A stretch of 64,000 bases of DNA from an uncultured Acidobacteriota bacterium (lineage in GTDB: Bacteria > Acidobacteriota > Blastocatellia > RBC074), in contig CAWCKY010000006.1 in NCBI GenBank assembly GCA_963796275.1, positions 1,024,001 to 1,088,000 of the forward strand. The letters run 5' to 3'. Made by a program: the position numbers and the translations under genes. The notes beneath the pieces were generated by a model that saw nothing but the letters and a program-made list of their open reading frames with translations, ran no database searches and was not told the DNA's origin. Positions 36,208-58,204 of the stretch are shown here, in pieces (positions within the stretch are counted from its first letter, which is position 1; each line of letters starts with the position of its first letter).

Positions 36208-36423
36208 CACCAGGGGAACGAGTGCAGCTGCATGCGAGTCGATCGTTCTCCTATAAATAATTGCTCGGACATCTGAAACCCCAAAAGCGGTATCTAACAT
36301 CTGGCATTCCCATCCGACAGATGCGAAGGCAGATTTCAGTTCAAGGATTCAGGTTTCAGCAACGCGCACTTCACAGTATTGAAAAAAAGAGAACGCCGAC
36401 ATAATCCCTCTTGCTCACTTTTT

Positions 36424-38973
36424 ATGGTGGTAGATTTTGCAAAATTGAAGAAGCTCAGAGGTCGCAGCGCACAAGAGTTGCGGGTCCGCGCGAAACAGGA
36501 GTGGACTAAGCTGAGCGAGCGGCTTTTTTATCCCGGCCGAGTGGAAATGAGCGATGCCGGTCTCTTGCGCGAACTGAGGCCAGCGGCACTTAATGGCTCG
36601 GGCGAGAGCGCCGCGGCGTTCACCGCTGATCGCATCCGCAAATTTAAAGTTACGCCATTTTTTCCCGCTTTCGCTCATCGCGATGAAATTCGCGAGATCA
36701 TGGAGAAACGATTCGCCGCCGAGCGGATCGGGATGATCGCGCGAGCAGAGCGAATTGTACAGGGCAGATTCGATCTTTTAGGACTGACCGATTTGAACTT
36801 CGGGGAACCGATCGACTGGCGCGCAGAGCCGACGTCGAAGAAGCGCAGCCCGCTATCACACTGGAGCAAAATCGATTACCTCAATCCGGATGTGACGGGA
36901 GACAAAAAAGTCACCTGGGAGCTGAACCGGCATCAGTTCTTAGTCACGCTCGGCCAGGCTTATCTGCTCACCGGCGATGACCGGTATGCTGAGAGTTTCG
37001 TCGCACTCGTCTCATCGTGGATTGACGCCAATCCCTTAAAACGCGGGATCAACTGGGTCAGCAGTCTGGAGCTCTCATTCCGCGCAATCTCCTGGCTGTG
37101 GGCGCTCAATCTTTTCGCCTCTTCTGAACGGTTGACTGCGCAGTTCGAATTGCGAATGCTCAAGCAATTGGTCGCGCACGGGCGCCATATTGAGTCTTAT
37201 CTTTCGCGTTTTTTCAGCCCCAACACCCATCTGACGGGCGAGGCTCTCGGATTATTCTACTTGGGCATGGCGCTTCCTGAATTACGTTGTGCGGGCGCGT
37301 GGCGGGATCTGGGGTTGAATATCCTGGTCGAACAGCTGCCGCTTCAGATACGCAGCGACGGAGTTTATTTCGAACAGTCGACCTATTATCACCGATACAC
37401 AGCCGACTTCTATATACACCTGTTGGCGCTCGCGCAGTCCAACGGCGTACCCCTTCCGGATGATGTCCGGCAGAAGCTCACGCAACTGCTCGATTATCTC
37501 ATGTGGATTACCAGGCCGGATGGAACATCCCCGTTGATCGGCGATGATGATGGCGGTCGCCTCATTCTACTCGGGACGCGCGCGTTGAACGATTACCGCG
37601 ATACCTTGGCGACGGGGGCCGCCATTCTCCGCCGCAGCGATTGGAAGTTCGTAGCCGGTGAGGCCGCCGTCGAGACACTCTGGTTGCTGGGACCAGGCGG
37701 GCTGAAGGAATACGATAACCTGGAGCCCGAATCGCCACAGGAGACCGCGTCTGCATTCGATGTGAGCGGCTATTTCGTAATGCGCGACGGTTGGAAGAGT
37801 TGTTCGAATTACGTGCTGGTCAATTGCGGACCGCGCGGGACGCCATTAAGTGCCGGACATTCGCATGCGGATGCGCTGTCGTTCGAATTCGCAGCCAACG
37901 GGAAGCCATGGGTTATCGATCCCGGTACCTTCGTTTACACCGGGGATAAGCGCGCGCGCAATGAGTTCCGTACGACAGTTGCGCATAACACGGTTACCGT
38001 CGATGGCGAGCAGCAATCGGTACCCGCCGGACCTTTTTCCTGGGGAGAGGGCGCTCGCGCCAAGTCAGAGTCCTTCATCGCTGAAGCCGACTGGACCTAC
38101 TTTAAGGGTTCGCACGATGGTTATCGGCGCCTGGAAGACCCGGTCACGCACACGCGCACGATCTTTTTTGTCAAAGCCGGAATAGAGTTCGGGCTGCCGG
38201 CTTATCTCCTGGTTCACGATCGCTTCGACACCTCAGGCGTCCACCGTTACGCAATCCGGTTTCATTTTCCGCCTGGTTGCGACATCGCGACCAGGAAGAA
38301 TCAGTTCAGGATTACGGAGTCGATCGACGAGGAATTGATTGTTCAAACATATGGAAGTTCCGCTTGCCGTGTCGATGTGGAAAAAGGCTGGGTCTCGCGT
38401 TGTTACGGACATCGCGAACAATCCCCGGTCGCGGTTGTCGAGGCTGATGGCGTGGGGCCACAGGAGTTCGTGACCATTATTATCCCGGCAATTAAGAATG
38501 AAGAAATTAAGATCGAACGTGAGTCCGAATCTTCGACCTCTCTGTCTATCTCGGCCGGAGCCGCGCGTGATGTAATCCTGCTTGGGAATGAGTCTGAGTA
38601 TGTCGGATCAAAATATTTGTCGGGATTGTGCTCGCTCGGATGGGGTCGTTTCCAGCAGGATAAGCTCGCGCGCGCCGGCCTCATTAACGGCAATCTGCTG
38701 GAATCCGAGGGCGTCTCCTTCTGCTCTCCGACGAAGGTCGAACATTTTGCGCTTCGCCTCGACGGTGGGGAAGTCTGGGTTTCCGTACCCGAAGTACACA
38801 ACTTCGATCTGGATCTGCCGGAGCATGCGAACATGGGTTTGATATTTAGGTCACACAAGATTGAATGGACGAAAAACCATCACCGACGATTCGCCGCGAA
38901 TACTTGGCCGAAGCGATTCATCGCATCGGTGAGTATCCGTGGTAGATTCCGTCTCTCTAGCTACTTTTATTGA
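36424..38973 (+). CDS. Heparinase II/III-family polysaccharide lyase
   Basis: WELNRHQF, NTHL.GE, DGVYFEQSTYYH, IGDDDGG, GHSHADALSF, IDPGT..Y, AHNTVTVDG. Confidence 0.88.
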   Translation: MVVDFAKLKKLRGRSAQELRVRAKQEWTKLSERLFYPGRVEMSDAGLLRELRPAALNGSGESAAAFTADRIRKFKVTPFFPAFAHRDEIREIMEKRFAAERIGMIARAERIVQGRFDLLGLTDLNFGEPIDWRAEPTSKKRSPLSHWSKIDYLNPDVTGDKKVTWELNRHQFLVTLGQAYLLTGDDRYAESFVALVSSWIDANPLKRGINWVSSLELSFRAISWLWALNLFASSERLTAQFELRMLKQLVAHGRHIESYLSRFFSPNTHLTGEALGLFYLGMALPELRCAGAWRDLGLNILVEQLPLQIRSDGVYFEQSTYYHRYTADFYIHLLALAQSNGVPLPDDVRQKLTQLLDYLMWITRPDGTSPLIGDDDGGRLILLGTRALNDYRDTLATGAAILRRSDWKFVAGEAAVETLWLLGPGGLKEYDNLEPESPQETASAFDVSGYFVMRDGWKSCSNYVLVNCGPRGTPLSAGHSHADALSFEFAANGKPWVIDPGTFVYTGDKRARNEFRTTVAHNTVTVDGEQQSVPAGPFSWGEGARAKSESFIAEADWTYFKGSHDGYRRLEDPVTHTRTIFFVKAGIEFGLPAYLLVHDRFDTSGVHRYAIRFHFPPGCDIATRKNQFRITESIDEELIVQTYGSSACRVDVEKGWVSRCYGHREQSPVAVVEADGVGPQEFVTIIIPAIKNEEIKIERESESSTSLSISAGAARDVILLGNESEYVGSKYLSGLCSLGWGRFQQDKLARAGLINGNLLESEGVSFCSPTKVEHFALRLDGGEVWVSVPEVHNFDLDLPEHANMGLIFRSHKIEWTKNHHRRFAANTWPKRFIASVSIRGRFRLSSYFY

Positions 38974-45672: not shown

Positions 45673-47205
45673 ATGGAAACGACGATCACAACAACTCATC
45701 ATCTACAGGTGCGGACGATTACCAGCATACTGGTGCTACCGGTTGTCGTCTTAATCGGACTGTTTTATCTCCTGACTATCAGGCAAGGTCACGCGTGGGG
45801 TGATGATTTCAGCATGTATATTCACCACGCGAAGAATATCTCGGCAGGCGTTCCTTACGGGCAGACGGGGTATATCTACAATCCATACCTTCACCACTAT
45901 TATGCCAATCAAGCACAAATCGGCCCGCAAACATATCCGCCGGTCGTTCCGCTGTTGCTGACGCCGATCTATTATTTCTGGGGATTGAACCTGAATGCTT
46001 TCAAGATAGGACTTATCCTGACCTTTCTCCTGGCCTTAATCGTCAATGCGCAAGCCTTTAAAAATTATATCTCTCCGCTCTGGCTGGCTGCTTTGATCGG
46101 CATCATCGGATTTAACCCGTTTCTCTGGCAATTTAAAGATAATATAGTTTCAGATATCCCATTCCTGTTTTTCATTTACCTGAGCCTCTTCTCAATCCAG
46201 CATGCCTACGAATCCGCTGAGGCTCGAGGAAAGTTAGGTGCTCTGCTGGTTGCGCTTTCGATCTACCTGGCTTATGGAACCAGGAGCATCGGCATATTAT
46301 TGATTCCATGTCTGTTGATATACGACTATATAAATAATCGTAGGGTAACCGCATTCGCCATTCAGGTTGTTGCTTTTGCGGGTGGACTGATACTTCTCCA
46401 AAATCTTTTACTTCACAGTGACAGCACTTATGCCGATCACCTGGGTTTCGGCATAAGCGTTGTCATTCATCATCTCAAAGAGTACCCCAAGGCGCTCTCT
46501 GAATTCTGGTTGAACGGTTACAACAAGCCTTTTCGGATCGTTCTTTTTGCATTCGTTTCCATCTTTGCAATATTGGGTTATTTCATATGTCTCAGACGAA
46601 GGATCGGCTGTTTCGAGATTTTCTTTGCGATCTATCTGGCCGCCATCTTGGTTCTCCCGGTCTATGATGGGATCAGATTTCTCATGCCGGTCATTCCCCT
46701 CTATCTGTTATATGCCCTGGTCGGAATAAAAGAAATATTTCGCGATAGGGCGCGTGTAAGAAGGCCGGTCTTTGCTGCGCTGATGGCGGCTATAGCTCTA
46801 ACTTATACTGGGCAGTATACGAAGATGGAATTCGGTCCGATAAGAGAAGGAGTTGTTAAAAGCGAGGCGCAGCAGTTTTTTACTTATGTTAGGGAGAAAA
46901 CGGGAGACCATGACACTTTCGTCTTCCGCAAGCCCAGAGCTCTGACGTTGTTTACGGGAAGGAGCGCCTCCGCCTGGCATAAGCCAGCGGACGATCAGGC
47001 GCTGTGGAATTACTTCCGGGAGATCAATGCTACATTCCTTGTCCTCGGGCCTGATGGGATTGAGCCGGAGGACCAGGAGTATTTAAGCCGTTTCATCGGA
47101 AGAAATGGCGATCGGCTTGAGAAAACCTATTCCAACGTGGATTTTGAAGTCTATCGCATAAAAGGTACAGGCAATGTCGTAAGTGACGATGTCCGGAAAC
47201 CGTGA
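45673..47205 (+). CDS. GT-C fold membrane glycosyltransferase (ArnT/PMT-like)
   Basis: WGDDF..Y acidic motif after TM1; YPP; SDIPF; about 11 TMs; RFLMPVIP; periplasmic C-terminal domain. Confidence 0.75.
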   Translation: METTITTTHHLQVRTITSILVLPVVVLIGLFYLLTIRQGHAWGDDFSMYIHHAKNISAGVPYGQTGYIYNPYLHHYYANQAQIGPQTYPPVVPLLLTPIYYFWGLNLNAFKIGLILTFLLALIVNAQAFKNYISPLWLAALIGIIGFNPFLWQFKDNIVSDIPFLFFIYLSLFSIQHAYESAEARGKLGALLVALSIYLAYGTRSIGILLIPCLLIYDYINNRRVTAFAIQVVAFAGGLILLQNLLLHSDSTYADHLGFGISVVIHHLKEYPKALSEFWLNGYNKPFRIVLFAFVSIFAILGYFICLRRRIGCFEIFFAIYLAAILVLPVYDGIRFLMPVIPLYLLYALVGIKEIFRDRARVRRPVFAALMAAIALTYTGQYTKMEFGPIREGVVKSEAQQFFTYVREKTGDHDTFVFRKPRALTLFTGRSASAWHKPADDQALWNYFREINATFLVLGPDGIEPEDQEYLSRFIGRNGDRLEKTYSNVDFEVYRIKGTGNVVSDDVRKP

Positions 47206-47218
47206 AAACCATGAAGAT

Positions 47219-47282
47219 GTAGGGCGGATTTCCTGACGGGCCCCGAATCCGCACCGGAGGCAGGTTGGAAAATCTGCCATCC
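47219..47282. repeat. Degenerate GTAG-type REP-like element
   Basis: GTAGGGCGGATT...AATCCGC and GGCAGGTTGGAAAATCTGCC palindromes, resembling 6043..6105. Confidence 0.4.
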
Positions 47283-47302
47283 GGCATATCCGAGGAGATA
47301 CG

Positions 47303-48364
47303 ATGAGTTCGAAATCGAGTAATGAAAACCTGGCAGGGCGTTTCACTAAGCCTGTCATAGAAATCTTCTCCACCTGCCCGCAATCGAGCCAGGTTTCTGA
47401 AGAAGACTATCTCAAGAACGTTGCCGATGTCGCGCGCTGGAGCGAGCAGTACGGTTGTAAAGGTATTCTTGTATATACGGATAATTCACTCATCGACGCC
47501 TGGCTGGTTTCTCAGTTGATTATTCAGAGCACTAGCGCTTTGTGCCCGCTCGTGGCGGTCCAGCCCGTCTATATGCACCCTTACACGGTGGCCAAAATGG
47601 CAGCCAGTTACGGATACCTCTACAATCGTCGGATCTTCCTCAATATGGTAGCAGGCGGGTTCAAGAATGACCTGACAGCTCTCAATGATACGACTCCGCA
47701 TGACAGAAGATACGACCGGATGATCGAATACGTCCACATCATCAAAAAGCTCCTCGCCGATCCAAACGGGATCAGCTTCGAGGGGGAGTTTTACAAGGTT
47801 GACAAACTGAAGATGACGCCTTCTCTGTCATCTGAGCTATTCCCCGGCATTTTCGTTTCGGGATCATCCGAAGCCGGGCTGGTAGCTGCCAAAGCGATGG
47901 GAGCGACGGCGGTCAAGTATCCGAAACCTCCGGGCGAGTATGAGAATGAGCCGCCGGAAGAGATGATAGGTTCCGGCGTTCGTGTCGGTATCATCACACG
48001 AGAGGGTGAGGATGATGCTTGGCGCGTCGCGCACGAGCGGTTCCCGCAGGACCGCAAAGGCGAGCTGACCCACCAGCTTGCCATGAAAGTTTCAGACTCC
48101 GTCTGGCATAAACAGCTCTCGGACCTGGGAAAGACGGTTGAGAACAATCCGTACTGGCTCGTGCCGTTCCAGCATTACAAAACTTTTTGCCCGTATCTGG
48201 TCGGCAGTTACACCAAAGTGGCTGCTGAGTTGACACGTTACATCGACCTGGGATTTCACACCTTTATCCTGGATATCCCCCCGAACGAGGAAGAGCTCTA
48301 CCACATCGGAACGGTTTTCAAACTGGCGATCGAAAAAACAGCAGTGAAGGGAGTGGCGTCGTGA
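47303..48364 (+). CDS. LLM-class (luciferase-like) flavin-dependent monooxygenase
   Basis: PLVAVQP, PYTVAKM, LNMVAGG, RYDRM.EY, FEGEFY, SGSSEAG, LVGSY; SsuD-like pattern. Confidence 0.85.
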   Translation: MSSKSSNENLAGRFTKPVIEIFSTCPQSSQVSEEDYLKNVADVARWSEQYGCKGILVYTDNSLIDAWLVSQLIIQSTSALCPLVAVQPVYMHPYTVAKMAASYGYLYNRRIFLNMVAGGFKNDLTALNDTTPHDRRYDRMIEYVHIIKKLLADPNGISFEGEFYKVDKLKMTPSLSSELFPGIFVSGSSEAGLVAAKAMGATAVKYPKPPGEYENEPPEEMIGSGVRVGIITREGEDDAWRVAHERFPQDRKGELTHQLAMKVSDSVWHKQLSDLGKTVENNPYWLVPFQHYKTFCPYLVGSYTKVAAELTRYIDLGFHTFILDIPPNEEELYHIGTVFKLAIEKTAVKGVAS

Positions 48365-49971
48365 ACTCGTTGTTACAGCAACTCGTAACCAGACAGGCGG
48401 AAAAATGCCCGGATCAGACGGCGATCGTTTATCAGAAACAGCGGATGACTTACGCCGAGCTGGAAGAAACATCGAACCAGTTGGGACGTCTTTTGAAGGA
48501 GGCCGGATGCCGAAGAGGTGACCGCGTCTGCTTCCTGATCCCCAAAACCCCGGCGGCAATCACAACTATCCTGGGCATTCTCAAAGCCGACTGCGTCTAT
48601 GTTCCTCTCGATACGGCTAGCCCGGTTCCGCGACTGGAGAAGATCGTCGATGCATGCAATCCTCGTTGCATCATCGCCGGTGGAGCGGTTGATTCGCTGC
48701 TGGATGGATTAATGGCCGATGAGTCGCGCCGCAACGGGACGAAGCTCGGGTGGATGGGTGAAGGGGGGAGCCACAAGCTCAAGCCACAGTTTACCCGTGA
48801 AGACCTCAGCGCTTACTCGAGCGCGCCCTTGGATTACGAGAACTCGATGAGCGATGCCGCTCATCTCCTTTTCACTTCCGGCTCGACGGGAGTGCCCAAG
48901 GGAGTTGTCATCACCCATTCCAACGTAATCACCTTCATCGAGTGGGCAGTGAAGTATTTCGGAACAAAATCATCGGACAAGATATCGAGTCATCCCCCGC
49001 TGCATTTCGATCTTTCGACTTTCGATATCTACGGTACATTATCATCCGGGGCACAGCTTCACATCGTCCCAACCGAGTTGAACCTGGTGCCGCACAAATT
49101 GGCCGATTTCATCCGCGCTTCCGAGCTGACACAGTGGTTCTCGGTGCCTTCGGTATTGAACTTCATGGCGAAAGCCGATGTCATCAAATTCGATGACTTT
49201 CCGTCACTGGAACGGCTGCTCTGGTGTGGAGAAGTATTTCCGACGCCTCCGCTGATTTACTGGATGAAGCGGCTCCCGCGCGTTAAATTCACTAATCTCT
49301 ACGGGCCGACGGAGGCTACGATTGCGAGTAGCTACTATAGCGTGCCCGCCTGCCCCGACGATGAACGGGCGCAGATACCGATCGGGTTGCCATGCGACGG
49401 TGAGGATTTGCATGTCCTGGATGAGGAATTGAAACCATTGCCTCACGGCGAAATAGGCGATCTCTATATCAGCGGCGCCGGATTAAGTCCAGGCTATTGG
49501 CAGGATCAGGAGAAGACCGGTGCCGTATTTTTGCGGCGCCCCGGCAGCACGGATCCGAACGATCGCATTTACAAGACCGGGGACCTGGCGAAGCTCGGTG
49601 AAGACGGCCTGGTTTATTATCTAGGGAGGGCCGACTCGCAGATCAAGAGCCGCGGATACCGCATCGAGCTGGGTGAGATCGAGACGGCTCTCAATGCCCT
49701 CAATATCACAGAGGAATGCGCGATAGTTGCGATCAATACGGAAGGCTTCGAAGGCGTGGCGATCTGCTGCGCTTACGTGCCATTTCAAAACGCGGATGCA
49801 TCACCGGTAAAGTTGCGCACAGAACTGAGTAAGGTGTTGCCCGGTTATATGTTGCCCGGGCGTTGGCTGCCGTTTGAGCGCTTGCCCAAGAATGCAAATG
49901 GGAAGATCGACAGGAAAGTACTGAGAGAACAGTTTCAACAAGAGGCAAAACAAACAGGAGAATCTGGCTGA
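48361..49971 (+). CDS. Stand-alone amino acid adenylation enzyme, DltA-like
   Basis: FTSGSTGVPKG, HFDLS, WCGE, NLYGPTE, YKTGD, GRADSQIKSRGYRIELGEIE, LPKNANGKIDR; no condensation or thiolation domain. Confidence 0.9.
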   Translation: MNSLLQQLVTRQAEKCPDQTAIVYQKQRMTYAELEETSNQLGRLLKEAGCRRGDRVCFLIPKTPAAITTILGILKADCVYVPLDTASPVPRLEKIVDACNPRCIIAGGAVDSLLDGLMADESRRNGTKLGWMGEGGSHKLKPQFTREDLSAYSSAPLDYENSMSDAAHLLFTSGSTGVPKGVVITHSNVITFIEWAVKYFGTKSSDKISSHPPLHFDLSTFDIYGTLSSGAQLHIVPTELNLVPHKLADFIRASELTQWFSVPSVLNFMAKADVIKFDDFPSLERLLWCGEVFPTPPLIYWMKRLPRVKFTNLYGPTEATIASSYYSVPACPDDERAQIPIGLPCDGEDLHVLDEELKPLPHGEIGDLYISGAGLSPGYWQDQEKTGAVFLRRPGSTDPNDRIYKTGDLAKLGEDGLVYYLGRADSQIKSRGYRIELGEIETALNALNITEECAIVAINTEGFEGVAICCAYVPFQNADASPVKLRTELSKVLPGYMLPGRWLPFERLPKNANGKIDRKVLREQFQQEAKQTGESG

Positions 49972-50184
49972 AGCGGGCATGTTCATAAAATAATGAAGTC
50001 ACCAGTTTGCTATTGATATCTTGATATAGGCAAGGCATTTCACCTCCGAGTGCAGAAGGCCAAATAAACCTTGGCGCCTCGGTTGTGAATCGGATCTGGT
50101 TCCGGGTTTTCCCGACGTCACTGGTAGCGAATAGTTTAAATTTGCAAATGCCTCAGCTGGATAGCGATAATTATCGGGGGACAC

Positions 50185-51132
50185 TTGAACGTATTATTGG
50201 TTGGCGAAGAGTCGGCCGGAGCCCAGACGCTGAAATTATTGGCGAATAGCTCCTATAAACTTGTGGGGGTAATGGCTTCGCCGACCAGAAAGAGTGCGGG
50301 CGGGCTGACGGTGTGGCAACTCGCCGAGAAAATGGGTTACCGCACCTGGCCGGCTGAACTGGTTAAAGACCCTGATTTTGCCGATGTGGTCAGATCTGAG
50401 AAGGTTGATTTACTGCTCAACGTTCATTCGTTATTCGTTATAAAAGGAGAGATAGTCTCAGCCCCTCGTTACGGCAGCTATAACCTGCACCCCGGCCCAC
50501 TTCCGCGTTATGCAGGTCTTAACGCGCCCAGCTGGGCGATCTACCGAGGTGAACGAGGGCACGGAGTAACGTTACACAGGATGCTGGCAGGTATAGATAC
50601 CGGAACGATCGCGTATCGGGCGCTCTTCGATATTGATGATAACGACACCGGGTTCTCAGTCAGCGCAAAGTGCATCAAGTTGGGAATGGAGCTGATCAAG
50701 AATCTGTTGGACGCGGCAGAGAGAGGCCCTGACCATATCCCGGCTATCGAGCAGGACTTCGCGCAGAGAGAGTATTTCGGTAGGGGAACGCCGGAAGAAG
50801 GTTGGATAGACTGGTCTCGACCCGCACGGGAGGTATTCAATTTCGTGCGGGCTGCCGACTATTCCCCATTCCAATCGCCCTGGCAAACCCCTCGCTCGAG
50901 ATTGGGAGACGAGGAGATCGGATTCGTAAAGGTAGCGCTAACCGGGCATGCGTGTGACGAGCAGCCCGGGACGATAGCCATTAAAGACGGGGAAGCAGTG
51001 AGGGTCTCATGCTCCGACGAATGGATTGATGTCAAGCGGGTTCAGAAGCAAGGAAAAATTTCAAACGCCATCGATCTGCTGCCGCCCGGGAGCAGATTGG
51101 AATGGGAGTCGGCTATAGCGACAAAAGTATGA
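50185..51132 (+). CDS. N10-formyl-THF-dependent formyltransferase (Fmt/ArnA-like)
   Basis: YNLHPGPLPRYAG, GVTLHRM, IDTG (Asn-His-Asp triad intact), WIDWS C-terminal domain; TTG start. Confidence 0.88.
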   Translation: MNVLLVGEESAGAQTLKLLANSSYKLVGVMASPTRKSAGGLTVWQLAEKMGYRTWPAELVKDPDFADVVRSEKVDLLLNVHSLFVIKGEIVSAPRYGSYNLHPGPLPRYAGLNAPSWAIYRGERGHGVTLHRMLAGIDTGTIAYRALFDIDDNDTGFSVSAKCIKLGMELIKNLLDAAERGPDHIPAIEQDFAQREYFGRGTPEEGWIDWSRPAREVFNFVRAADYSPFQSPWQTPRSRLGDEEIGFVKVALTGHACDEQPGTIAIKDGEAVRVSCSDEWIDVKRVQKQGKISNAIDLLPPGSRLEWESAIATKV

Positions 51133-51259
51133 CGTTAGCTCTGTTTATATGGATGAAAAGTGGAACAAAAACAACAAAAAAGGCGATCAAGTCATTAGGG
51201 ATTTTGTTGCCTCTTTTTCGTTATTTTTGCCTCCGTAATTGTTATGGAGAACTCGTTAA

Positions 51260-51505
51260 ATGGTAACCTTAAGCAATATTGAATTGCACGATAAAATCAC
51301 CAAGCTGCTATCAGAGAAGGTTCTTATAGAAGCATCATCGATTGAAACCGACCTTGTAGAGACTGGTTTACTCGACTCGCTCAAACTGGTGGAGTTGATG
51401 ACGAGCCTCGAAGATGAGTTCGGGATCACCATATCATTCGATGAGATAGAGATTGATAACTTTCGTTCCATCGCAAGTATTGCGGAGTATGTCAATCAGA
51501 GGTAG
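51260..51505 (+). CDS. Acyl/aminoacyl carrier protein (DltC-like)
   Basis: 81 aa, acidic; DLVETGLLDSL phosphopantetheine site; LEDEFGITI; NFRSIASIA. Confidence 0.9.
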   Translation: MVTLSNIELHDKITKLLSEKVLIEASSIETDLVETGLLDSLKLVELMTSLEDEFGITISFDEIEIDNFRSIASIAEYVNQR

Positions 51506-51521
51506 CAGAATGTGATTTGAA

Positions 51522-52547
51522 TTGAGACTGGAGGGGAAGGTGCGCGCAATTGGAACTGGAGTCTCGGTTGTAATACCGGCTTATAATGAAGAAAGAGGTG
51601 TGGGGCCACAGGTGGAGTCGATCCGGCTGGTTTTAACTTCGCACCGGATAAAACACGAAATCATAGTCGTTGACGATGGATCAGATGATCGCACGGCTGA
51701 GGAGGCTGTCAAAGCCGGCGCCCGCGTATTTCAGCATCTGAAGAACAGGGGGTACGGCGCATCACTCAAGACCGGTATTTTGGCGGCCAGCTACGAAGCG
51801 ATAGCCATCACGGACGCTGATGGCACTTATCCTTCCGACCAAATCCCTCCAATGCTGAAATTGCTCGAAACCGCGGATATGGTGGTCGGGGCGCGCACGG
51901 GTGATAGTGTGAGCATTCCGCTTCTGCGTAAGCCCGGCAAATTGTTCCTCGGATGGCTCGCCAACAGGATCGCCGGCCAGAAGATACCCGACCTGAATTC
52001 CGGGTTGCGCGTTTTCTGGCGTGAGTGCGCAGAGCAGTACTTTTCCGTACTGTCCAACAAGTTCTCATTCACAACTACCATTACTTTAGCGTTGCTGGCT
52101 GATGACTACCGGGTGTTATATCACCGCATTAATTATTACCGGCGAATCGGCAGATCAAAAATAATGCCCAGGCATTTTCTGGATTTCACTATCCTGGTGA
52201 TTCGCATGGCAATGCTATTTAAACCGCTCAGAGTTTTTGTTCCGATTGTGTGCACATCGGGGCTGGCGGGGGTTATCAAGGTCGCCTTTGACATCGCGGT
52301 GGCTGTAATGCGGAACGGAGGGCTCGGTTGGAGCTTATTCTCCGAGCCCGTTATCTCGACGTCCGCCTTACTGTTACTTTTAGGGAGTTACCAATTGTTA
52401 CTCATAGGTATGGTGGCTGACGGATTGATTCGGCGCATTGCGCGTCATAATCAACCGAGAGTGCTCTCGCATGGAATTTTGGTTGCTGAGATATCCAAGG
52501 GACGGCAATTCGAAGAACCAGCCTGTGCGAGCCAGACTGAGAAGTAA
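51522..52547 (+). CDS. GT2 polyprenyl-phosphate glycosyltransferase (DPM1/GtrB/ArnC-like)
   Basis: SVVIPAYNEE, VVDDGSDD, NRGYGASL, TDADGTY, DMVVGAR, DLNSGLR; two C-terminal TMs. Confidence 0.85.
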   Translation: MRLEGKVRAIGTGVSVVIPAYNEERGVGPQVESIRLVLTSHRIKHEIIVVDDGSDDRTAEEAVKAGARVFQHLKNRGYGASLKTGILAASYEAIAITDADGTYPSDQIPPMLKLLETADMVVGARTGDSVSIPLLRKPGKLFLGWLANRIAGQKIPDLNSGLRVFWRECAEQYFSVLSNKFSFTTTITLALLADDYRVLYHRINYYRRIGRSKIMPRHFLDFTILVIRMAMLFKPLRVFVPIVCTSGLAGVIKVAFDIAVAVMRNGGLGWSLFSEPVISTSALLLLLGSYQLLLIGMVADGLIRRIARHNQPRVLSHGILVAEISKGRQFEEPACASQTEK

Positions 52548-52612
52548 GGAAGTAAACGAAGTAAATAGGATGAATCTCTAATCTTCACACCCAAGGGGTT
52601 CGAGACGGACGT

Positions 52613-54514
52613 ATGTGTGGCATTACCGGAATTTTACGAATTAACTCCGATGCCAATGGGTTTGATTTTAAGCTCATTGACCGGATGACCGATTCCTTGG
52701 CTCATCGAGGCCCCAATGACCGTGGTGTCTGGAACGATGACATGATCAGTCTGGGCAGCCGGCGGCTCTCTGTCATAGACCTGTCGGCCGCCGGCCATAT
52801 GCCGATGAGCAATGAGGACGGCAAAATCCAGATCGCCTACAACGGCGAACTATACAATTTCCGTGAGCTCAAGGAACGATTTCAGCTGGTCGAACGCGGA
52901 CATATATTTCGTTCGCGCACTGACACGGAAGTTCTCGTTCATCTTTACGAAGAGCTGGGAATCGAGATGGTGAAATACCTCAATGGTATGTACGGCATCG
53001 CCATCTGGGATAGCCGCAGTCAGATGCTCTATCTGATACGGGATCACGCAGGAATCAAGCCCCTGTTCTACCAGCGCGATGATCATTACTTCCGCTTCGG
53101 TTCGGAGATCAAAGCAATTCTGGCCGACAGCCGCGTCCCGCGCAGGCCGTCGCTTCAGGCATTGCACGATTTTCTCTCCTTCGATTATGTGCCCGGGCCG
53201 CAAACCGCTTTTGAAGGTATACATGAGCTGCCGCCGGGCCATTGGATGAGCGTCGATCAGGACGGGCAAATCGATATTCAGCGATTCTGGGATGTGTCGT
53301 GGGAACCGGATGAGACGCTCAGTGAAAAAACAGCCAGCCGGCGCGCGCTCGAGCTCATGGATCGCGCGGTGAAAATGCAGCTGGTGGCCGATGTCCCGGT
53401 CGGCGTTATGTTATCTGGCGGTCTGGATTCAAGCACTCTTGTTGCGCTTATGCACCGGCACGTCTCGGAACCGATCCATACATATTCGGTCGGATTCGAG
53501 GACAAGAGTTTCAACGAGCTGCCTTACGCTCGTATCGTGGCCAGGAAATTTCAGACGGTTCAACGCGAGGTTGTGGTCACGCCGGATACCGTTCGCGAGC
53601 TATTACCCGTTTACCTGAGCTATATCGATGAGCCTTACGCCGACGGATCGGCCATCCCTACCTTTTGCGTCTGTCAGATAGCAAAGGATGAGGTGGTTGT
53701 GGTGCTATCGGGTGAGGGTGGCGATGAAATCTTCGCGGGATATGATACCTATTCCGCATTCAAGGCGTCGGAACTGTTCAAGTACGTCCCGCGATGGATT
53801 CGTCGATCTCTGATCGCTCCATTTGTCAACAGTCTGCCGGTCTCCGACAAAAAGCTCAGCCTCGAATTTAAGATGAAACGGTTTATAGGCGGACAGGAAT
53901 TGCCTCCCGCGCTGGCTCATTTATGGTGGCGCATTGTTTTAACCGAAAGTAAAAAACTGGAAATGTTTACTACTGAGTCGTTGGAGCAATTCGTTCCATC
54001 GTCATCCGATCGCTTCTTCATCGAGGAATTCAAGCGTGTGAAAGCCTTCGACGATCTTTCGCGAATAATGCAGATCGATTCATCGATATTCCTTCCCGAT
54101 GATCTTATGATCAAGAACGACCGGATGAGTATGGCGCATTCGCTGGAGGCGCGGGTCCCGATGACGGATACGGAATTGATCAGGTTTATGGCCAGAGTGC
54201 CGGCGAGGATCAAACTGCCGGGTTTGCGCAAAAAGAATGTTATGCGAGGCGCGATGGCGGATCTTTTGCCGCCTGAAATTTTGAACAAGAAAAAGGTCGG
54301 GTTGGAAATGCCGTATTCGAGGTGGTTCAAAAATGAATTGAGAGACTTGATCGAGCATCATCTCGGGCCGAAAAAAATCTCCGAAAGGAGATTGCTGAAA
54401 CCCGAATCAGTGAAGGCGCTGGTTGATGAGCATATGTCAGGGCGGCGCGATAACGGGCGCGCATTATGGGGATTGCTCAATTATATGGTGTGGCTCGATC
54501 TTTATATCCCGTAA
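52613..54514 (+). CDS. asnB: Second asparagine synthase-like glutamine amidotransferase
   Basis: MCGI, HRGP.D, RRLSVID, YNGELYN, LSGGLDSS, SGEGGDE, SLEARVP. Confidence 0.92.
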   Translation: MCGITGILRINSDANGFDFKLIDRMTDSLAHRGPNDRGVWNDDMISLGSRRLSVIDLSAAGHMPMSNEDGKIQIAYNGELYNFRELKERFQLVERGHIFRSRTDTEVLVHLYEELGIEMVKYLNGMYGIAIWDSRSQMLYLIRDHAGIKPLFYQRDDHYFRFGSEIKAILADSRVPRRPSLQALHDFLSFDYVPGPQTAFEGIHELPPGHWMSVDQDGQIDIQRFWDVSWEPDETLSEKTASRRALELMDRAVKMQLVADVPVGVMLSGGLDSSTLVALMHRHVSEPIHTYSVGFEDKSFNELPYARIVARKFQTVQREVVVTPDTVRELLPVYLSYIDEPYADGSAIPTFCVCQIAKDEVVVVLSGEGGDEIFAGYDTYSAFKASELFKYVPRWIRRSLIAPFVNSLPVSDKKLSLEFKMKRFIGGQELPPALAHLWWRIVLTESKKLEMFTTESLEQFVPSSSDRFFIEEFKRVKAFDDLSRIMQIDSSIFLPDDLMIKNDRMSMAHSLEARVPMTDTELIRFMARVPARIKLPGLRKKNVMRGAMADLLPPEILNKKKVGLEMPYSRWFKNELRDLIEHHLGPKKISERRLLKPESVKALVDEHMSGRRDNGRALWGLLNYMVWLDLYIP

Positions 54515-54585
54515 ATAGTGTTTTTATAAGTTTCTGTCCCTTTCGGGACTTCGGGGTGAACAAACAATTTTTTTGAGATTCAACG

Positions 54586-56013
54586 ATGTCGAAACCCCAT
54601 GTCATTATTCTTGGCGCAGGACCAGCCGGTCTGGGAGCGGCGTATCAGTTAACGCGGCGTAAACTGGCTCAAGTTACTGTGATTGAGCGGAACAGTGTGG
54701 TCGGGGGAAACGCCGGCAGTTTTGTGTTAGACGGATTGCGCGTCGATTATGGCAGCCACCGCCTGCATCCCGCCTGTAATCCGGATGTTTTGCGCGATAT
54801 TCGCGAGATGCTTAATGGCGACCTCTTGGATATGCCGCGCCACGGCAGGATCAGGTTGCGCGGCCATTGGATTCATTTTCCCCTGAAACCTCTGGATCTC
54901 GCCCTCAAGCTCCCACCCGGTTTTGCGCTGGGCGTGGCCGGCGATTTCTTCGGGAAATTTTTGCCGCTGAATTCCAACGGCAACGGCCCGGATACCTTCT
55001 CTTCGATTCTCGAGAAAGGCCTGGGACGAACTATCTGCAGAGATTTCTACTATCCTTACGCGCGCAAGTTATGGGGATTGGAGCCTGAAGAATTATCAGC
55101 GACGCAGGCGCGCCGCAGGGTTTCGGCCGGTTCGCTTACCAAGATGGCGAGGAAAGTGCTGTCAGCTGTGCCGGGATTCAAACCGCCGGGGAGCGGCCGG
55201 TTCTTTTACCCGCGCTTCGGATATGGCCAGATTTGCGAAGCATATTACGAGGCTGCCAAAAATTTGGGGGCGACATTTCTCCTCAAGACGAACCTCTTGT
55301 CGGTGGACATCCGAGATGACGGGCGTTCGGTTGTCGGTTATGAGCATAATGACGAGACCCATACATTGAATGGAGAATATGTATGGTCTACTATTCCGGT
55401 TACCTCGCTCGCAAGTCAGATAACGCCTGCACCGCCTCTCGATTATATTCAATCGGCGAAGGCGATCGACTATCGTGCAATGATACTCATCTACCTGGTG
55501 CTTGAGCAGGATCAGTTCACAGAGTACGATGCACATTACTTTCCAGAAAAGCAGATCAGGATATCGCGGCTATCGGAGCCCAAAAATTACAGTGCGAGCA
55601 CGGAACCGAGTAATCGGACCGTCCTCTGTGCTGAACTGCCCTGCAGTCCGAATGATCCGGAATGGAATATGAGCGATCACGCCCTGGGAGACTTGATGCG
55701 CAATGCCCTGGCATCGGCGGGTTTGCCGGTGCGCGCTCGAGTCTTGCGCGTAACATCGCGACGCTTGCGCCAGGCATATCCGATCTACCGGCAGGGGTAC
55801 GAGCACCACTTCAACCGGCTCGATCAATGGCTGAGCCGGATAAACGGACTGCTTACTTTCGGAAGGCAGGGTCTGTTTGCACACGATAACACTCACCATG
55901 CCCTGTTTATGGCGTATGCCGCGGTCGATTGCCTCGGAGCAGAAGGCCGGTTTGATTACGACCGTTGGCGCGATTTCCGGCGCATCTTCGAGACTCATGT
56001 CGTGGAGGATTGA
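54586..56013 (+). CDS. FAD-dependent oxidoreductase (UDP-galactopyranose mutase / HemY-like superfamily)
   Basis: ILGAGPAGL, VGGNAGS, DYGSHR, FYYPYARKLWG, FFYPRFG.GQ, AYPIY, GRQGLF. Confidence 0.82.
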   Translation: MSKPHVIILGAGPAGLGAAYQLTRRKLAQVTVIERNSVVGGNAGSFVLDGLRVDYGSHRLHPACNPDVLRDIREMLNGDLLDMPRHGRIRLRGHWIHFPLKPLDLALKLPPGFALGVAGDFFGKFLPLNSNGNGPDTFSSILEKGLGRTICRDFYYPYARKLWGLEPEELSATQARRRVSAGSLTKMARKVLSAVPGFKPPGSGRFFYPRFGYGQICEAYYEAAKNLGATFLLKTNLLSVDIRDDGRSVVGYEHNDETHTLNGEYVWSTIPVTSLASQITPAPPLDYIQSAKAIDYRAMILIYLVLEQDQFTEYDAHYFPEKQIRISRLSEPKNYSASTEPSNRTVLCAELPCSPNDPEWNMSDHALGDLMRNALASAGLPVRARVLRVTSRRLRQAYPIYRQGYEHHFNRLDQWLSRINGLLTFGRQGLFAHDNTHHALFMAYAAVDCLGAEGRFDYDRWRDFRRIFETHVVED

Positions 56014-56016
56014 GTT

Positions 56017-57105
56017 ATAAGACCTATCAGACCGTTCGAGAAAGAGGATATCCCCCAAGTGGCCGAAATGTTCCGGCGCCTCTTGTTGGGAGATGAGCCT
56101 TCGCGGCGTCGCCTGTCCACATCGGCACTTCAAGATTATTTTGAAAAAGTATTTTTTCTTAATCCCTGGTATGACGAATCACTTCCTTCGCTGATCTATC
56201 GAAATGGCGATGGGAAGATTATCGGATTCCTCGGTGTCGTGCCGCGCCGTATGTTCTTTCGAGACATTCCGATTAATGTCGCGATAAGCTTTCATTTCAT
56301 GGTCGAACCGGAGAGCCGCTCGACGCTTGCCGGCGTACATCTGCTGAGGACATTCTTTTCCGGGCCCCAGGACCTCTCGCTAACGGACGGCGCAGGCGAT
56401 GCCGGACGAAAGGTTTGGGAGATGGTTGGAGGGGTGTCGGTGCCGCTATATTGCCAGCGCTGGACGCGGATTTTAAGGCCGAGCAGGCAGGTTCTCGCCC
56501 TGCTCAGCAGAAACAAACTGATATCTTCGGTCTCCGGTCTGATGTCTCCTTTTTGCGATGTTACCGATTCGACCTTAGCTCATCTTATGCCGCGTTATTT
56601 CCCTGCAACTGAAAATTCTGAAGAGGAGCTGAATGTAAAAACGTTTATTGATGAGATGCCGCAGATAACCAAGGGGCTGGCGTTACGGCCGGATTACGAG
56701 ATCGATACGGCGCGGTGGGTATTCGACGGTGCGGCGCAAATGAAATATTACGGCGATCTCCATAAACTGTTGGTGCGGAATACCAAGGGCGAGGTAATCG
56801 GTTGGTTCATATACTATCTCAATCGTGGCAGCACGGGCGCAGTCGTTCAGGTAGCAGCACGGAAGGGGGCGATCGACGAAATTCTGGATCACCTGTTCAG
56901 CCATGCCCGGAGGAAAGGTGCAGTCTCACTCTCAGGCCGTGTCGAACCGAGATTCATGCGGGAGTTATCGGAGAAGCATTGTTTTTTCAGATCTGTCGGA
57001 GCTATGTTTCTGGTTCATTCGAGAAATGACGATCTATTGCACGCGATCCAGCGCGGAGACGCCTTTATAAGTCATCTGGAAGGCGAGTGGACATTATTGT
57101 TTTAA
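56017..57105 (+). CDS. GNAT-family N-acyltransferase (start uncertain)
   Basis: IRPFEKEDIPQVA N-terminus upstream of the called GTG; GKIIGFLG; FMVEPESR; two-GNAT-domain length. Confidence 0.7.
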   Translation: MRPIRPFEKEDIPQVAEMFRRLLLGDEPSRRRLSTSALQDYFEKVFFLNPWYDESLPSLIYRNGDGKIIGFLGVVPRRMFFRDIPINVAISFHFMVEPESRSTLAGVHLLRTFFSGPQDLSLTDGAGDAGRKVWEMVGGVSVPLYCQRWTRILRPSRQVLALLSRNKLISSVSGLMSPFCDVTDSTLAHLMPRYFPATENSEEELNVKTFIDEMPQITKGLALRPDYEIDTARWVFDGAAQMKYYGDLHKLLVRNTKGEVIGWFIYYLNRGSTGAVVQVAARKGAIDEILDHLFSHARRKGAVSLSGRVEPRFMRELSEKHCFFRSVGAMFLVHSRNDDLLHAIQRGDAFISHLEGEWTLLF

Positions 57106-57136
57106 CCAAGACAATACCTGCTTTGATTCGCTGAGC

Positions 57137-58204
57137 TCACGAGGAAAAGTCCCAGAGATTTTTGGGAGGCGGTGCATATTTGTGCCGCCTCGGCAGTGAA
57201 GCCGAGACGCCTGTCAGCCAGCCTTCAAACACGATCGGTTCCTGAAGCGCTGTATCGACAAATCGCGGTAGCAGCCGGCGATCGGTCTCCTGCGAAACAA
57301 GGCCCGGATCACATGTCGTAGCCGAGGTTATGCCCATTTCATCGAGCCAGGGAAAGAAAGTACGATCATATATGCCGCTGGGATAACATAAGTGTGTAGC
57401 ATGATTCCCGGTCATTGATTGGATGCTGGTCCGGTTATCCTCGATCTCCAGACGGAACGATTGGTACTCCATCGGGGTGCGGTGACGGTGAGTGTGGAGC
57501 TGGACGTCAACCCCATCATCCGCCAGCCGGCGTACTTCCTGAGGATTTAAGAGGTGTAATATTCTTTTGGCGAGCAGCGATTCGTAATCAACGGAGAGAT
57601 GTTTCGCCAGATTTGCCGCCAATATATCTTTCTCTTTCGCGGTCAGTTTCGCGCGCCTCGAGAATTGGAATATCTCATCGGTGGCTCTGTCGCACGCGCC
57701 GTCAAGCGATAGATCGAACTTCATATCCTGTCCGGTTATATCTTTCATATCTAACTTTCTGCCTCTGCCCTTCCAGATCAAGTAAGGACATACCGCATCA
57801 AAGACAGGCCTGTTGAAATAGGAGTAATAAGTTGTCAGGTACAGAGTAACAGGATAATTGAACTCTTTAATAATCGGGTATGCCAGTTTATAGAAGTCAT
57901 ACATGCCGTCATCAAAGGTCAAAGCTAAACATCGCTCAGGCAGGTCGTTGGCATATAAGCGCTGCAGCGATTCGTTTAACGGCAGAACGGTATAACCCAG
58001 CTTTTTGATTATTTGCATTCTTGAACGGAAGCTATCCTGTGGCATAAACAGCTCAGGGTTCCAGTTATGCTCATCCTCCTGGGAAATTCCATGGTAAGCG
58101 AGAATTAGCAGCCGCTTCCGGCGCCACCTGCTGTTCTGGACTAGGCTGAATACGCCTACTGTCTTGAGGGTACTAAGCGCTGCTAGTTTCATCTTTTTGA
58201 GCAT
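57137..58204 (-). CDS. Polysaccharide deacetylase (NodB/CE4)
   Basis: LILAYHG, LTFDDG, LHTHRH, LCYPSG, LLPRF. Confidence 0.88.
   Translation of the reverse strand: MLKKMKLAALSTLKTVGVFSLVQNSRWRRKRLLILAYHGISQEDEHNWNPELFMPQDSFRSRMQIIKKLGYTVLPLNESLQRLYANDLPERCLALTFDDGMYDFYKLAYPIIKEFNYPVTLYLTTYYSYFNRPVFDAVCPYLIWKGRGRKLDMKDITGQDMKFDLSLDGACDRATDEIFQFSRRAKLTAKEKDILAANLAKHLSVDYESLLAKRILHLLNPQEVRRLADDGVDVQLHTHRHRTPMEYQSFRLEIEDNRTSIQSMTGNHATHLCYPSGIYDRTFFPWLDEMGITSATTCDPGLVSQETDRRLLPRFVDTALQEPIVFEGWLTGVSASLPRRHKYAPPPKNLWDFSS

Follow-up and report, generated by a model that had tools for sequence, protein, structure and literature searches.

We analysed a 64,000-nucleotide stretch of the genome of an uncultured Acidobacteriota bacterium (GCA_963796275.1, contig CAWCKY010000006.1, positions 1,024,001 to 1,088,000), hereafter the window, in which an earlier note had described ten genes of a polysaccharide cluster as an undescribed hybrid of the Dlt and Arn glycan-tailoring systems. 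The ten genes are all present where that note had placed them, nine on the + strand and one, convergent, on the - strand. However, the part that is conserved across phyla is a cassette of four genes, which encode an SsuD-like luciferase-like monooxygenase (LLM), a stand-alone amino-acid adenylation enzyme (A-domain), an Fmt/ArnA-like formyltransferase and a free-standing carrier protein. The ten-gene block is a lineage-specific assembly around this mobile core. The idea of a hybrid stands for the four-gene unit, which recurs, and is not supported as a general rule for its Arn half, which is confined to close relatives: "Arn-like" describes a local add-on and not the core, because the membrane glycosyltransferase of GT-C fold, the family 2 glycosyltransferase (GT2), the second AsnB, the FAD oxidoreductase and the NodB-fold deacetylase accompany the cassette in close Blastocatellia relatives only. 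We found no published description of the cassette, or of the pocket signature of its A-domain, in the full-text literature, subscription journals and supplements aside, and the proteins do not qualify as members of the Dlt, Arn or Alm systems, in line with the earlier note, whose author knew of no characterised pathway with this combination.

The conservation of the core emerges from loci built around relatives of the window formyltransferase. These relatives were aligned and the best 80 of 255 candidate stretches from species-representative genomes were taken as loci, in which homologues were found by tblastn with the window proteins; none of our conclusions depends on the unpublished genome G004. 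Homologues of the A-domain occur in 62 loci, of the carrier in 59, and of the LLM in 51, where it lies at most 8 kb from the formyltransferase and has 44-81% identity. Among the 64 loci with sufficient flanks (at least 4 kb upstream and at least 1.5 kb downstream), the four genes are found together in 42, and the A-domain, formyltransferase and carrier in 48. The gene order LLM, A-domain, formyltransferase, carrier recurs across phyla far beyond chance, and the complete set is present in at least eight of them according to the labels of the genome records (Acidobacteriota, Nitrospirota, Latescibacterota, Actinomycetota, Planctomycetota, Gemmatimonadota, Balneolota and Binatota). In the window itself, the stop of the LLM gene and the start of the A-domain gene overlap by 4 nt. 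A scan of metagenomes for closer relatives retrieved six loci, all at 81% identity or less. Of the other genes of the block, those of the GT-C protein, the FAD-dependent oxidoreductase and the NodB enzyme have homologues in none of the 80 loci, and the GT2 gene in one. By ORF clustering, 37 of the 51 loci with both a formyltransferase and an A-domain gene (FMT+A loci) carry at least one polysaccharide gene family; counts per 51 loci rest on crude ORF calling, which missed some genes.

The A-domain (48361..49971, +, 536 aa) is of the stand-alone, type II kind and is the only A-domain match in the window. It scores 376 bits against TIGR01733 (cut-off 317.4) and stays below the cut-offs of the DltA models in NCBIfam (TIGR01734, 316.5 bits against 559.85); its top PDB match is LgrA. 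Both the Asp of the FDxS motif and the Lys of the last core motif are present (the equivalents of Asp235 and Lys517), which in the literature on nonribosomal peptide synthetases (NRPS) are marks of alpha-amino-acid activation. The pocket signature reads DLFFLCLIAK. It is exact in 43 of the 57 A-domains of the loci and conservatively varied in 11 more, so that 54 keep the pattern D-L-x-F-x-C-L-I-A-K, even where the enzymes are just about 30% identical overall. The three exceptions are unrelated A-domains from neighbouring NRPS genes. When the pocket region alone was searched against the PDB, stand-alone carrier ligases came out on top: a proline ligase (6o6e), followed by 4oxi (E 7.7e-17) and by DltA of several species. 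The motif anchors used for the window protein give DLLYLALVCK for the proline ligase (5 of 10 positions in common with the window signature), which presumably matches the type II proline code and which we took as a check of the anchors. They give DLMTMCTVAK for DltA of B. subtilis (5 of 10) and DLHLFCLIAK (7 of 10) for 4oxi, which we take to be VC1579 (AlmE) of V. cholerae. In the part of PMC4278540 available, AlmE is a glycine-carrier ligase. The substrate of the window A-domain is likely to be a small residue, glycine first and alanine second, to judge from the pocket residues, because two phenylalanines here take the place of smaller residues. A cysteate or sulfonate substrate, suggested by the likeness of the LLM to SsuD, was set aside, the pocket signature being entirely hydrophobic or small and devoid of basic residues.

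The carrier (51260..51505, +, 81 aa; PF00550, E 1e-10) has its phosphopantetheine serine in the motif GLLDSL, and this residue, S40, is invariant in 20 homologues. It reaches 28.9 bits against the DltC model TIGR01688, whose cut-off is 52.35, and is a PP-binding carrier of generic type. The earlier proposal that an amino acid is activated and held on a carrier is thus supported, with a stand-alone A-domain of DltA/AlmE type and a free carrier protein as the components.

The gene of the formyltransferase (50185..51132, +, 315 aa) lies between those of the A-domain and the carrier. The protein has the N- and C-terminal domains of the N10-formyl-tetrahydrofolate-dependent Fmt/ArnA family (PF00551 and PF02911) and aligns with ArnA and Fmt, the NLH motif and the Asp being conserved. 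N100, H102 and D138, which we take to be the catalytic triad, do not vary among 17 homologues. When longer relatives were sought, 110 proteins were returned, about 90 of which, from a reading of the table, have Formyl_trans, AMP-binding, Bac_luciferase and PP-binding domains in a single chain of about 1500 aa. Four were mapped with Pfam: P0251 is an F-(C-like)-A-PCP protein with the LLM inserted in its A part and with glycine-type residues in the pocket of its fused A-domain, P0242 has the architecture F-C-A-T-TE with an F part 54% identical to the window protein, P0246 is a partial F-LLM-A and P0247 an F-GNAT (F, formyltransferase; C, condensation; A, adenylation; PCP or T, carrier; TE, thioesterase). 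From these fusions we argue that the parts of the cassette may all share a single tethered substrate, in the manner of the LgrA F domain. Since its gene sits between those of the A-domain and the carrier and is fused to A/PCP modules elsewhere, a role like that of an NRPS F domain is more likely for the formyltransferase than one like that of ArnA. The cassette may also explain the function of the large family of fused, single-module F-A[LLM]-PCP synthetases. The formyltransferases that occur without the cassette are found on one side of a branch in a quick tree (modest support of 80). Among them, four Gemmatimonadota loci (L058, L066, L068, L076) have an approximately 48%-identical formyltransferase without A-domain or carrier, directly after a FemAB-like GNAT (Acetyltransf_6) and with a PglF-like dehydratase and a sugar transferase nearby; the same kind of formyl-aminoacyl sugar may be made there by a tRNA-dependent route. 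Elsewhere, the cassette-less formyltransferases are found in unrelated contexts.

The LLM (47303..48364, +, 353 aa; PF00296, E 1e-29) is predicted to be FMNH2-dependent. Its nearest NCBIfam models are those of SsuD, far below whose cut-offs it scores, and its nearest solved structures are MsuD/SsuD (E 2e-24). It is not of the same family as the LLM of the fused synthetases (BLASTP against P0251, E 0.2). Conserved synteny and domain fusions nonetheless bear out the earlier claim that the formyltransferase and an LLM belong to one unit with the A-domain and carrier.

A candidate transferase is encoded towards the end of the block (56017..57105, +). The ORF finder placed its start at a GTG at 56059, while the frame extends further upstream and the 14 additional residues match the N-termini of homologues. 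The real start is therefore probably the ATA at 56017, which would give a protein of 362 aa; this codon lies 8 nt after GGAGGA and, in the same frame, 3 nt beyond the TGA that ends the FAD oxidoreductase gene (56003-56019). It may be a genuine rare start codon, or a base error may have turned ATG into ATA. The protein has no Pfam match of its own, although 15 of 17 members of its family match Acetyltransf_9 (PF13527). Its AlphaFold2 (AF2) model (pLDDT 89.7) contains two GNAT folds in one chain, has a Foldseek match at E 7e-12, and aligns over about 275-290 residues with N-myristoyltransferase (Z 17.8), 2hv2 (Z 17.8) and Eis2 (Z 17.6; VIA-align). In 12 of the 80 loci (L013, L017, L020, L030, L032, L037, L040, L041, L044, L046, L067, L079), a homologue of this tandem GNAT starts no more than about 500 nt from the carrier gene, and in two of nine further loci (L094, L096) two tandem-GNAT genes come straight after a second carrier gene. 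This proximity makes the GNAT the likely transferase, as had been suggested. A 389-aa protein without Pfam match (fam13), found by ORF clustering in 11 loci including those of Terriglobales and Bradyrhizobium, is related to the tandem GNAT (hhalign 96%, E 3e-9). Two other candidate relatives were rejected: the protein family fam10, which follows the cassette in 11 loci (hhalign probability 1.1%), and the GNAT part of P0247 as an orthologue, with which the Pfam family and an N-terminal motif are common (BLASTP E 0.17).

Taken together, we propose that the core is a mobile, dissociated thiotemplate module served by a tandem-GNAT transferase: the carrier would receive a small amino acid, on which N-formylation and oxidation would take place, and the GNAT would move the product to a sugar amine. 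We give this account about an even chance of being correct. It builds on our observations of gene content and protein folds, of synteny and a pocket signature that are conserved, and of domain fusions, and from these we infer the substrate, the order of steps, the acceptor and the product, as well as every chemical step. The A-domain would adenylate a small alpha-amino acid, for which glycine is the likeliest candidate and alanine the next, to form a thioester on the holo-carrier. The formyltransferase would then N-formylate the tethered residue with N10-formyl-tetrahydrofolate, as in the F domain of linear gramicidin synthetase, and the LLM would oxygenate it, by analogy with BtrO of the butirosin pathway and with the glycine-oxidising LLM domains of NRPSs. 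Finally, the tandem GNAT would take the acyl group off the carrier thioester and pass it to a free amine, in all likelihood that of a de-N-acetylated amino sugar of the exopolysaccharide (EPS) repeat unit or of a polyprenyl-phosphate sugar. In the host genome and its closest relatives, the module would be wired to a lipid-carrier route, in which the GT2 makes a polyprenyl-phosphate sugar that is probably the acceptor, the NodB enzyme frees the amine by de-N-acetylation or removes the formyl cap later like ArnD, and the GT-C protein couples the decorated sugar on the outer side of the membrane. The AsnB enzymes would probably amidate uronic acids made through the upstream UDP-glucose dehydrogenase. 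A more specific version is doubtful: the cassette would build an oxidised N-formyl-glycyl unit, either N-formyl-alpha-hydroxyglycyl or a hadacidin-like N-formyl-N-hydroxyglycyl hydroxamate, and an unclassified, carrier-dependent family of tandem GNATs would graft it onto de-N-acetylated amino sugars.

Several points weigh against this account. The LLM is missing in six loci that keep the A-domain, formyltransferase and carrier, and may thus be an optional part of the cassette. The formyltransferase is found without A-domain or carrier genes in 8 of the 64 well-flanked loci, at 46-52% identity, and because such formyltransferases occur beside FemAB-like GNATs and PglF-like dehydratases, it is possible that formylation takes place on the sugar-bound amine, after transfer. 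Tandem-GNAT homologues are present in only 20 of the 80 loci; in the 51 FMT+A loci the place of the GNAT is taken by an NRPS of C-A-T-TE architecture in 15 and by fam10, a 373-aa protein of unknown family, in 11. GNATs usually use acyl-CoA. No flavin reductase, phosphopantetheinyl transferase or thioesterase is encoded in the block. The ten pocket positions were read from motif anchors and not from a structure, and the call of glycine from seven common positions is a weak one. Finally, the separate-gene and fused architectures recruited different LLM subfamilies, by sequence comparison, and the analogy between them spans these subfamilies.

Among the alternatives, it is unlikely that the cassette makes a small released metabolite, such as an N-formyl or hydroxamate-type dipeptide or chelator, its place in an EPS cluster reflecting co-regulation or chance. 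Terriglobales cassettes do lie beside NRPS C-A-T-TE, P450, sulfotransferase and methyltransferase genes, F-C-A-T-TE fusions exist, and the N-formyl-N-hydroxy groups of siderophores are made by pairs of a monooxygenase and an Fmt-like formyltransferase (PvdA/PvdF, CchB/CchA). However, no thioesterase or condensation domain was found among the 46 window ORFs scanned with Pfam and NCBIfam (with no separate search for PF00668), the cassette genes run in one direction with little space between them amid glycan genes, and the tandem GNAT offers transfer rather than hydrolytic release. The polysaccharide genes of the FMT+A loci, described above, point the same way, and the Terriglobales loci themselves carry rml genes.

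Quite unlikely, too, is a route in the manner of Arn, in which the formyltransferase acts on a nucleotide- or polyprenyl-linked amino sugar as ArnA does, the GT2, NodB and GT-C proteins play the parts of ArnC, ArnD and ArnT, and the A-domain and carrier deliver a separate substituent. The best NCBIfam and PDB matches of the formyltransferase are the N-domains of ArnA (120 bits against NF005998, cut-off 777, over residues 10-291, which is the N-terminal formyltransferase part only); GT2, NodB, GT-C and UDP-glucose dehydrogenase genes all lie within the window; and relatives of the formyltransferase without A-domain or carrier stand beside sugar-nucleotide enzymes. Yet neither a DegT/ArnB-type aminotransferase nor the decarboxylase domain of ArnA was matched among the window ORFs scanned, and the GT-C, NodB and GT2 genes are virtually absent from the loci in most of which A-domain and carrier co-occur. 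The position of the formyltransferase gene between those two, its fusions to A, PCP and TE domains and the separate clustering of the cassette-less formyltransferases in the quick tree also speak for the F-domain-like role set out above.

The carrier chemistry could also be as we propose and the acceptor a different one, which we think very unlikely; it would then be a lipid, namely lipid A, the target of AlmG, or an aminolipid, or else a protein that is secreted or exposed on the cell surface. The closest characterised stand-alone A-domain pockets are those of AlmE and DltA, which serve lipid A and teichoic acid, and N-myristoyltransferase, one of the top fold matches of the GNAT, acylates the N-termini of proteins; against this, the neighbours of the cassette are overwhelmingly glycan genes and no LpxL-type acyltransferase is found among the block proteins. 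It is barely credible that the formyltransferase instead S-formylates the phosphopantetheine thiol of the carrier (or CoA), with the carrier delivering the formyl group and the A-domain otherwise used: LctF of lactacystin biosynthesis, an Fmt-like enzyme that formylates CoA and whose formyl group ends on an acyl carrier protein (ACP) according to the available part of PMC11730586, is a precedent for thiol formylation that tells against our proposal, and N-terminal domains of 10-formyl-tetrahydrofolate dehydrogenase are among the PDB matches of the formyltransferase, but an aminoacyl and a formyl group cannot occupy the same carrier, of which most loci encode just one, the A-domain retains the Asp for binding the alpha-amino group, and the F-A-PCP fusions resemble NRPS initiation modules.

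Eight of the ten block proteins were named directly by Pfam or NCBIfam; the other two, the GNAT and a 510-aa membrane protein, have no Pfam match and were modelled. The latter (45673..47205, +) is a GT-C fold membrane glycosyltransferase of ArnT/STT3-like type (AF2 pLDDT 87.9), without match to PMT or PMT_2, whose Foldseek matches include STT3/OST, ArnT (5f15, E 2.8e-7, TMq 0.53), PglB and AglB; the ArnT and STT3/PglB folds were matched equally. PF13231 was read from the table in 12 of 120 homologues. Two homologues, P0163 and P0172, are fused to an N-terminal GT2 that is only weakly similar to the GT2 of the window (24% identity, E 5e-7), which hints that the family works with a GT2 partner.

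The window GT2 (51522..52547, +, 341 aa; PF00535) is of the polyprenyl-phosphate sugar synthase type (DPM1/GtrB/ArnC-like) and has two C-terminal hydrophobic helices. Its best NCBIfam matches are AglJ, a dolichyl-phosphate hexose transferase, PpgS and ArnC, all below cut-off (51.8 bits against 529 for the ArnC model NF007986). It is followed by a second AsnB-type glutamine amidotransferase (52613..54514, +, 633 aa; PF00733 and a GATase domain, with TIGR01536 above cut-off). The suggestion of the earlier note that the GNAT or the AsnB-fold enzyme moves the amino acid finds no support as regards AsnB: the AsnB enzymes of polysaccharide clusters are known as carboxylate amidotransferases, and a UDP-glucose 6-dehydrogenase gene lies upstream of the block. 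The two remaining accessory genes encode an FAD-dependent oxidoreductase of amine-oxidase fold and PRK07208 type (54586..56013, +, 475 aa; PF01593, PF13450) and the convergent NodB-fold polysaccharide deacetylase or deformylase (57137..58204, -, 355 aa; PF01522, E 5e-20). A different NodB family (fam8) is found in 12 of the 51 FMT+A loci.

The accessory genes can be followed in a few relatives. In a genome of the same genus (G002), one contig carries GT4, UDP-glucose dehydrogenase, beta-helix, GT-C, LLM, A-domain and formyltransferase genes, and another carries orthologues of the FAD oxidoreductase (78%) and of the NodB enzyme (70%) together with two tandem-GNAT genes. Locus L095 has the GT-C, LLM, A-domain, formyltransferase and carrier genes, a 7-kb insert encoding SxtJ, two carbamoyltransferases and two ORFs without Pfam match, and then the GT2 (73%) and the second AsnB (80%). 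A GT-C gene next to the cassette was found only in G002 and L095. A further genome (G015) has GT-C homologues and a homologue of the FAD oxidoreductase (59%) in another glycan cluster, without cassette. Locus L105 (G015:C45:8000-27999), a separate glycan cluster, has three GT-C-like genes, a UbiA-HAD fusion, two FAD oxidoreductases (one of them 59% identical to that of the window) and a C-methyltransferase, a content that recalls polyprenyl-phosphate pentose pathways.

The surroundings of the cassette vary in other clades as well. In sister Blastocatellia loci (L001-L011 and L095) the carrier gene is followed by genes for an SxtJ-like protein, two carbamoyltransferases, SGNH/GDSL-like proteins and fam10, and then by tandem GNATs (for example L095:11265-18368); this variable insert may add a carbamoyl group. 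In Terriglobales loci, including L021, L028, L029, L048, L055 and L065, the cassette is preceded by a P450, an NRPS C-A-T-TE, the GNAT-like fam13 and a sulfotransferase, and followed by a methyltransferase, a 900-aa NHL-repeat protein, a glycoside hydrolase, a NUDIX protein and rml genes, which may constitute a glycosylated formyl-peptide pathway.

The host genome (9.46 Mb, 94.7% complete) has its relatives among the Blastocatellia, Acidobacteriota. In the window, Pfam and NCBIfam matches place the block at the end of a long Wzx/Wzy-type EPS cluster, which includes a chain-length determinant, a tyrosine kinase, an export protein, another NodB, Wzx, a Wzy_C-like protein, GT4s, a first AsnB, the UDP-glucose 6-dehydrogenase and a beta-helix protein. 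No membrane-bound O-acyltransferase (MBOAT, PF03062) was matched in the whole genome, while control genomes did match; hence, the absence of an MBOAT noted earlier for the window extends to the genome, we found none encoded elsewhere, and the proposed route would need none. A scan for promoters and terminators gave counts near shuffled expectation, and no NRPS was found among the window ORFs scanned. Two genes of the window appear to be interrupted. The gyrA gene is split into ORFs 2115-2669 and 2729-4591 (+), in different frames, that match positions 3-177 and 202-793 of the GyrA model; an essential gene is thus frameshifted, most likely through an assembly indel error, and start codons and frames elsewhere in the window therefore need caution. 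The Wzy_C/O-antigen-ligase-like gene is split into overlapping ORFs (28906-29550 and 29453-30493, +) that match the N- and C-terminal parts of TIGR03097, a probable second frameshift. In the same cluster, a PaaK-like adenylate-forming ligase (30826-32241, +) is directly followed by a DUF362 protein (32241-33794, +), possibly a second acyl-activating step, and an 864-aa heparinase II/III-like protein (36379-38973, +), encoded midway through the biosynthetic operon, may be a lyase or epimerase whose substrate is a uronic-acid polymer.

If our proposal holds, it predicts an unreported substituent in the EPS of abundant soil bacteria, whose chemistry has effects on soil aggregation, on metal binding and on tolerance of desiccation. 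The more specific version, with its oxidised N-formyl-glycyl graft, would give many soil bacteria a metal-binding or latent-cationic EPS, and with it a glycan modification chemistry and a transferase class that are both new.

Carrier-dependent aminoacylation of surface polymers has two medically important cases, Dlt and Alm, both of which alter surface charge and resistance to cationic peptides. The cassette would extend their logic to the EPS of Acidobacteriota and of at least seven other phyla, and would add on-carrier formylation and oxygenation and a different transferase fold. AlmEFG resembles it in having a stand-alone A-domain, a free carrier and a separate acyltransferase to a cell-envelope glycolipid, with no MBOAT (available part of PMC4278540), and 7 of the 10 pocket positions are in common with PDB 4oxi. 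On the other hand, AlmEFG has neither formyltransferase nor LLM, its transferase is of LpxL type and not a tandem GNAT, and its target is lipid A and not EPS; no lipid A acyltransferase family, to which the LpxL-type AlmG would correspond, was matched by Pfam or NCBIfam among the ten block proteins. DltABCD likewise decorates a surface polymer with an A-domain and carrier pair, and Cys 301 and Ala 331 of the pocket are common with DltA. However, the DltA and DltC models are not reached, the genome lacks an MBOAT match, and Dlt is without on-carrier tailoring. Arn is like the block in its polyprenyl-phosphate GT2, NodB-fold enzyme and GT-C protein, and in the formyl group as a possible transient cap, and unlike it in that the block has no ArnB and no decarboxylase/SDR domain of ArnA, scores far below the cut-offs of the Arn models, and keeps its Arn-like genes apart from the conserved cassette.

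The carrier steps also resemble those of the F-A-PCP initiation module of the linear gramicidin synthetase LgrA and of the fused, single-module F-A[LLM]-PCP NRPSs, where an Fmt-like domain N-formylates a carrier-bound aminoacyl group and where the TIGR01733 A-domain and the PP-binding carrier are likewise found. In contrast, the parts of the cassette are separate proteins, the fused LLM belongs to another subfamily, and LgrA has F, A and PCP in one chain with a condensation domain, of which none was seen among the window ORFs scanned. The LgrA F domain was not among the PDB matches of the formyltransferase.

In the pathway to the AHBA side chain of butirosin, an amino acid is built on a free ACP, N-protected, hydroxylated by an LLM while tethered, transferred to the amine of an amino sugar and deprotected. 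The route that we propose would copy this logic, with an ACP-bound residue that is N-protected, hydroxylated by a member of the LLM superfamily, transferred and deprotected. The available parts of PMC13707489 and PMC2922099 attribute to btrI/J/K/O/V/H/G the LLM hydroxylation on the ACP and the subsequent transfer to the amino sugar. The two differ in their loader (ATP-grasp against an ANL A-domain), protecting group (gamma-glutamyl against formyl) and target (aminoglycoside against polysaccharide), and the transferase BtrH has a papain-like fold, as far as the available part of PMC2922099 goes, whereas that of the cassette is a GNAT. No ATP-grasp (BtrJ) or PLP-decarboxylase (BtrK) family was matched by Pfam or NCBIfam among the ten block proteins. 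If a NodB-type deformylase later took off the formyl cap, the result would be a protect-transfer-deprotect route analogous to both Arn and butirosin. The alternative role of the NodB enzyme, de-N-acetylation before transfer, has its counterpart in Nod factor synthesis (NodB/NodA/NodF), where de-N-acetylation is followed by re-acylation from a dedicated carrier protein, the same logic as in the route proposed here.

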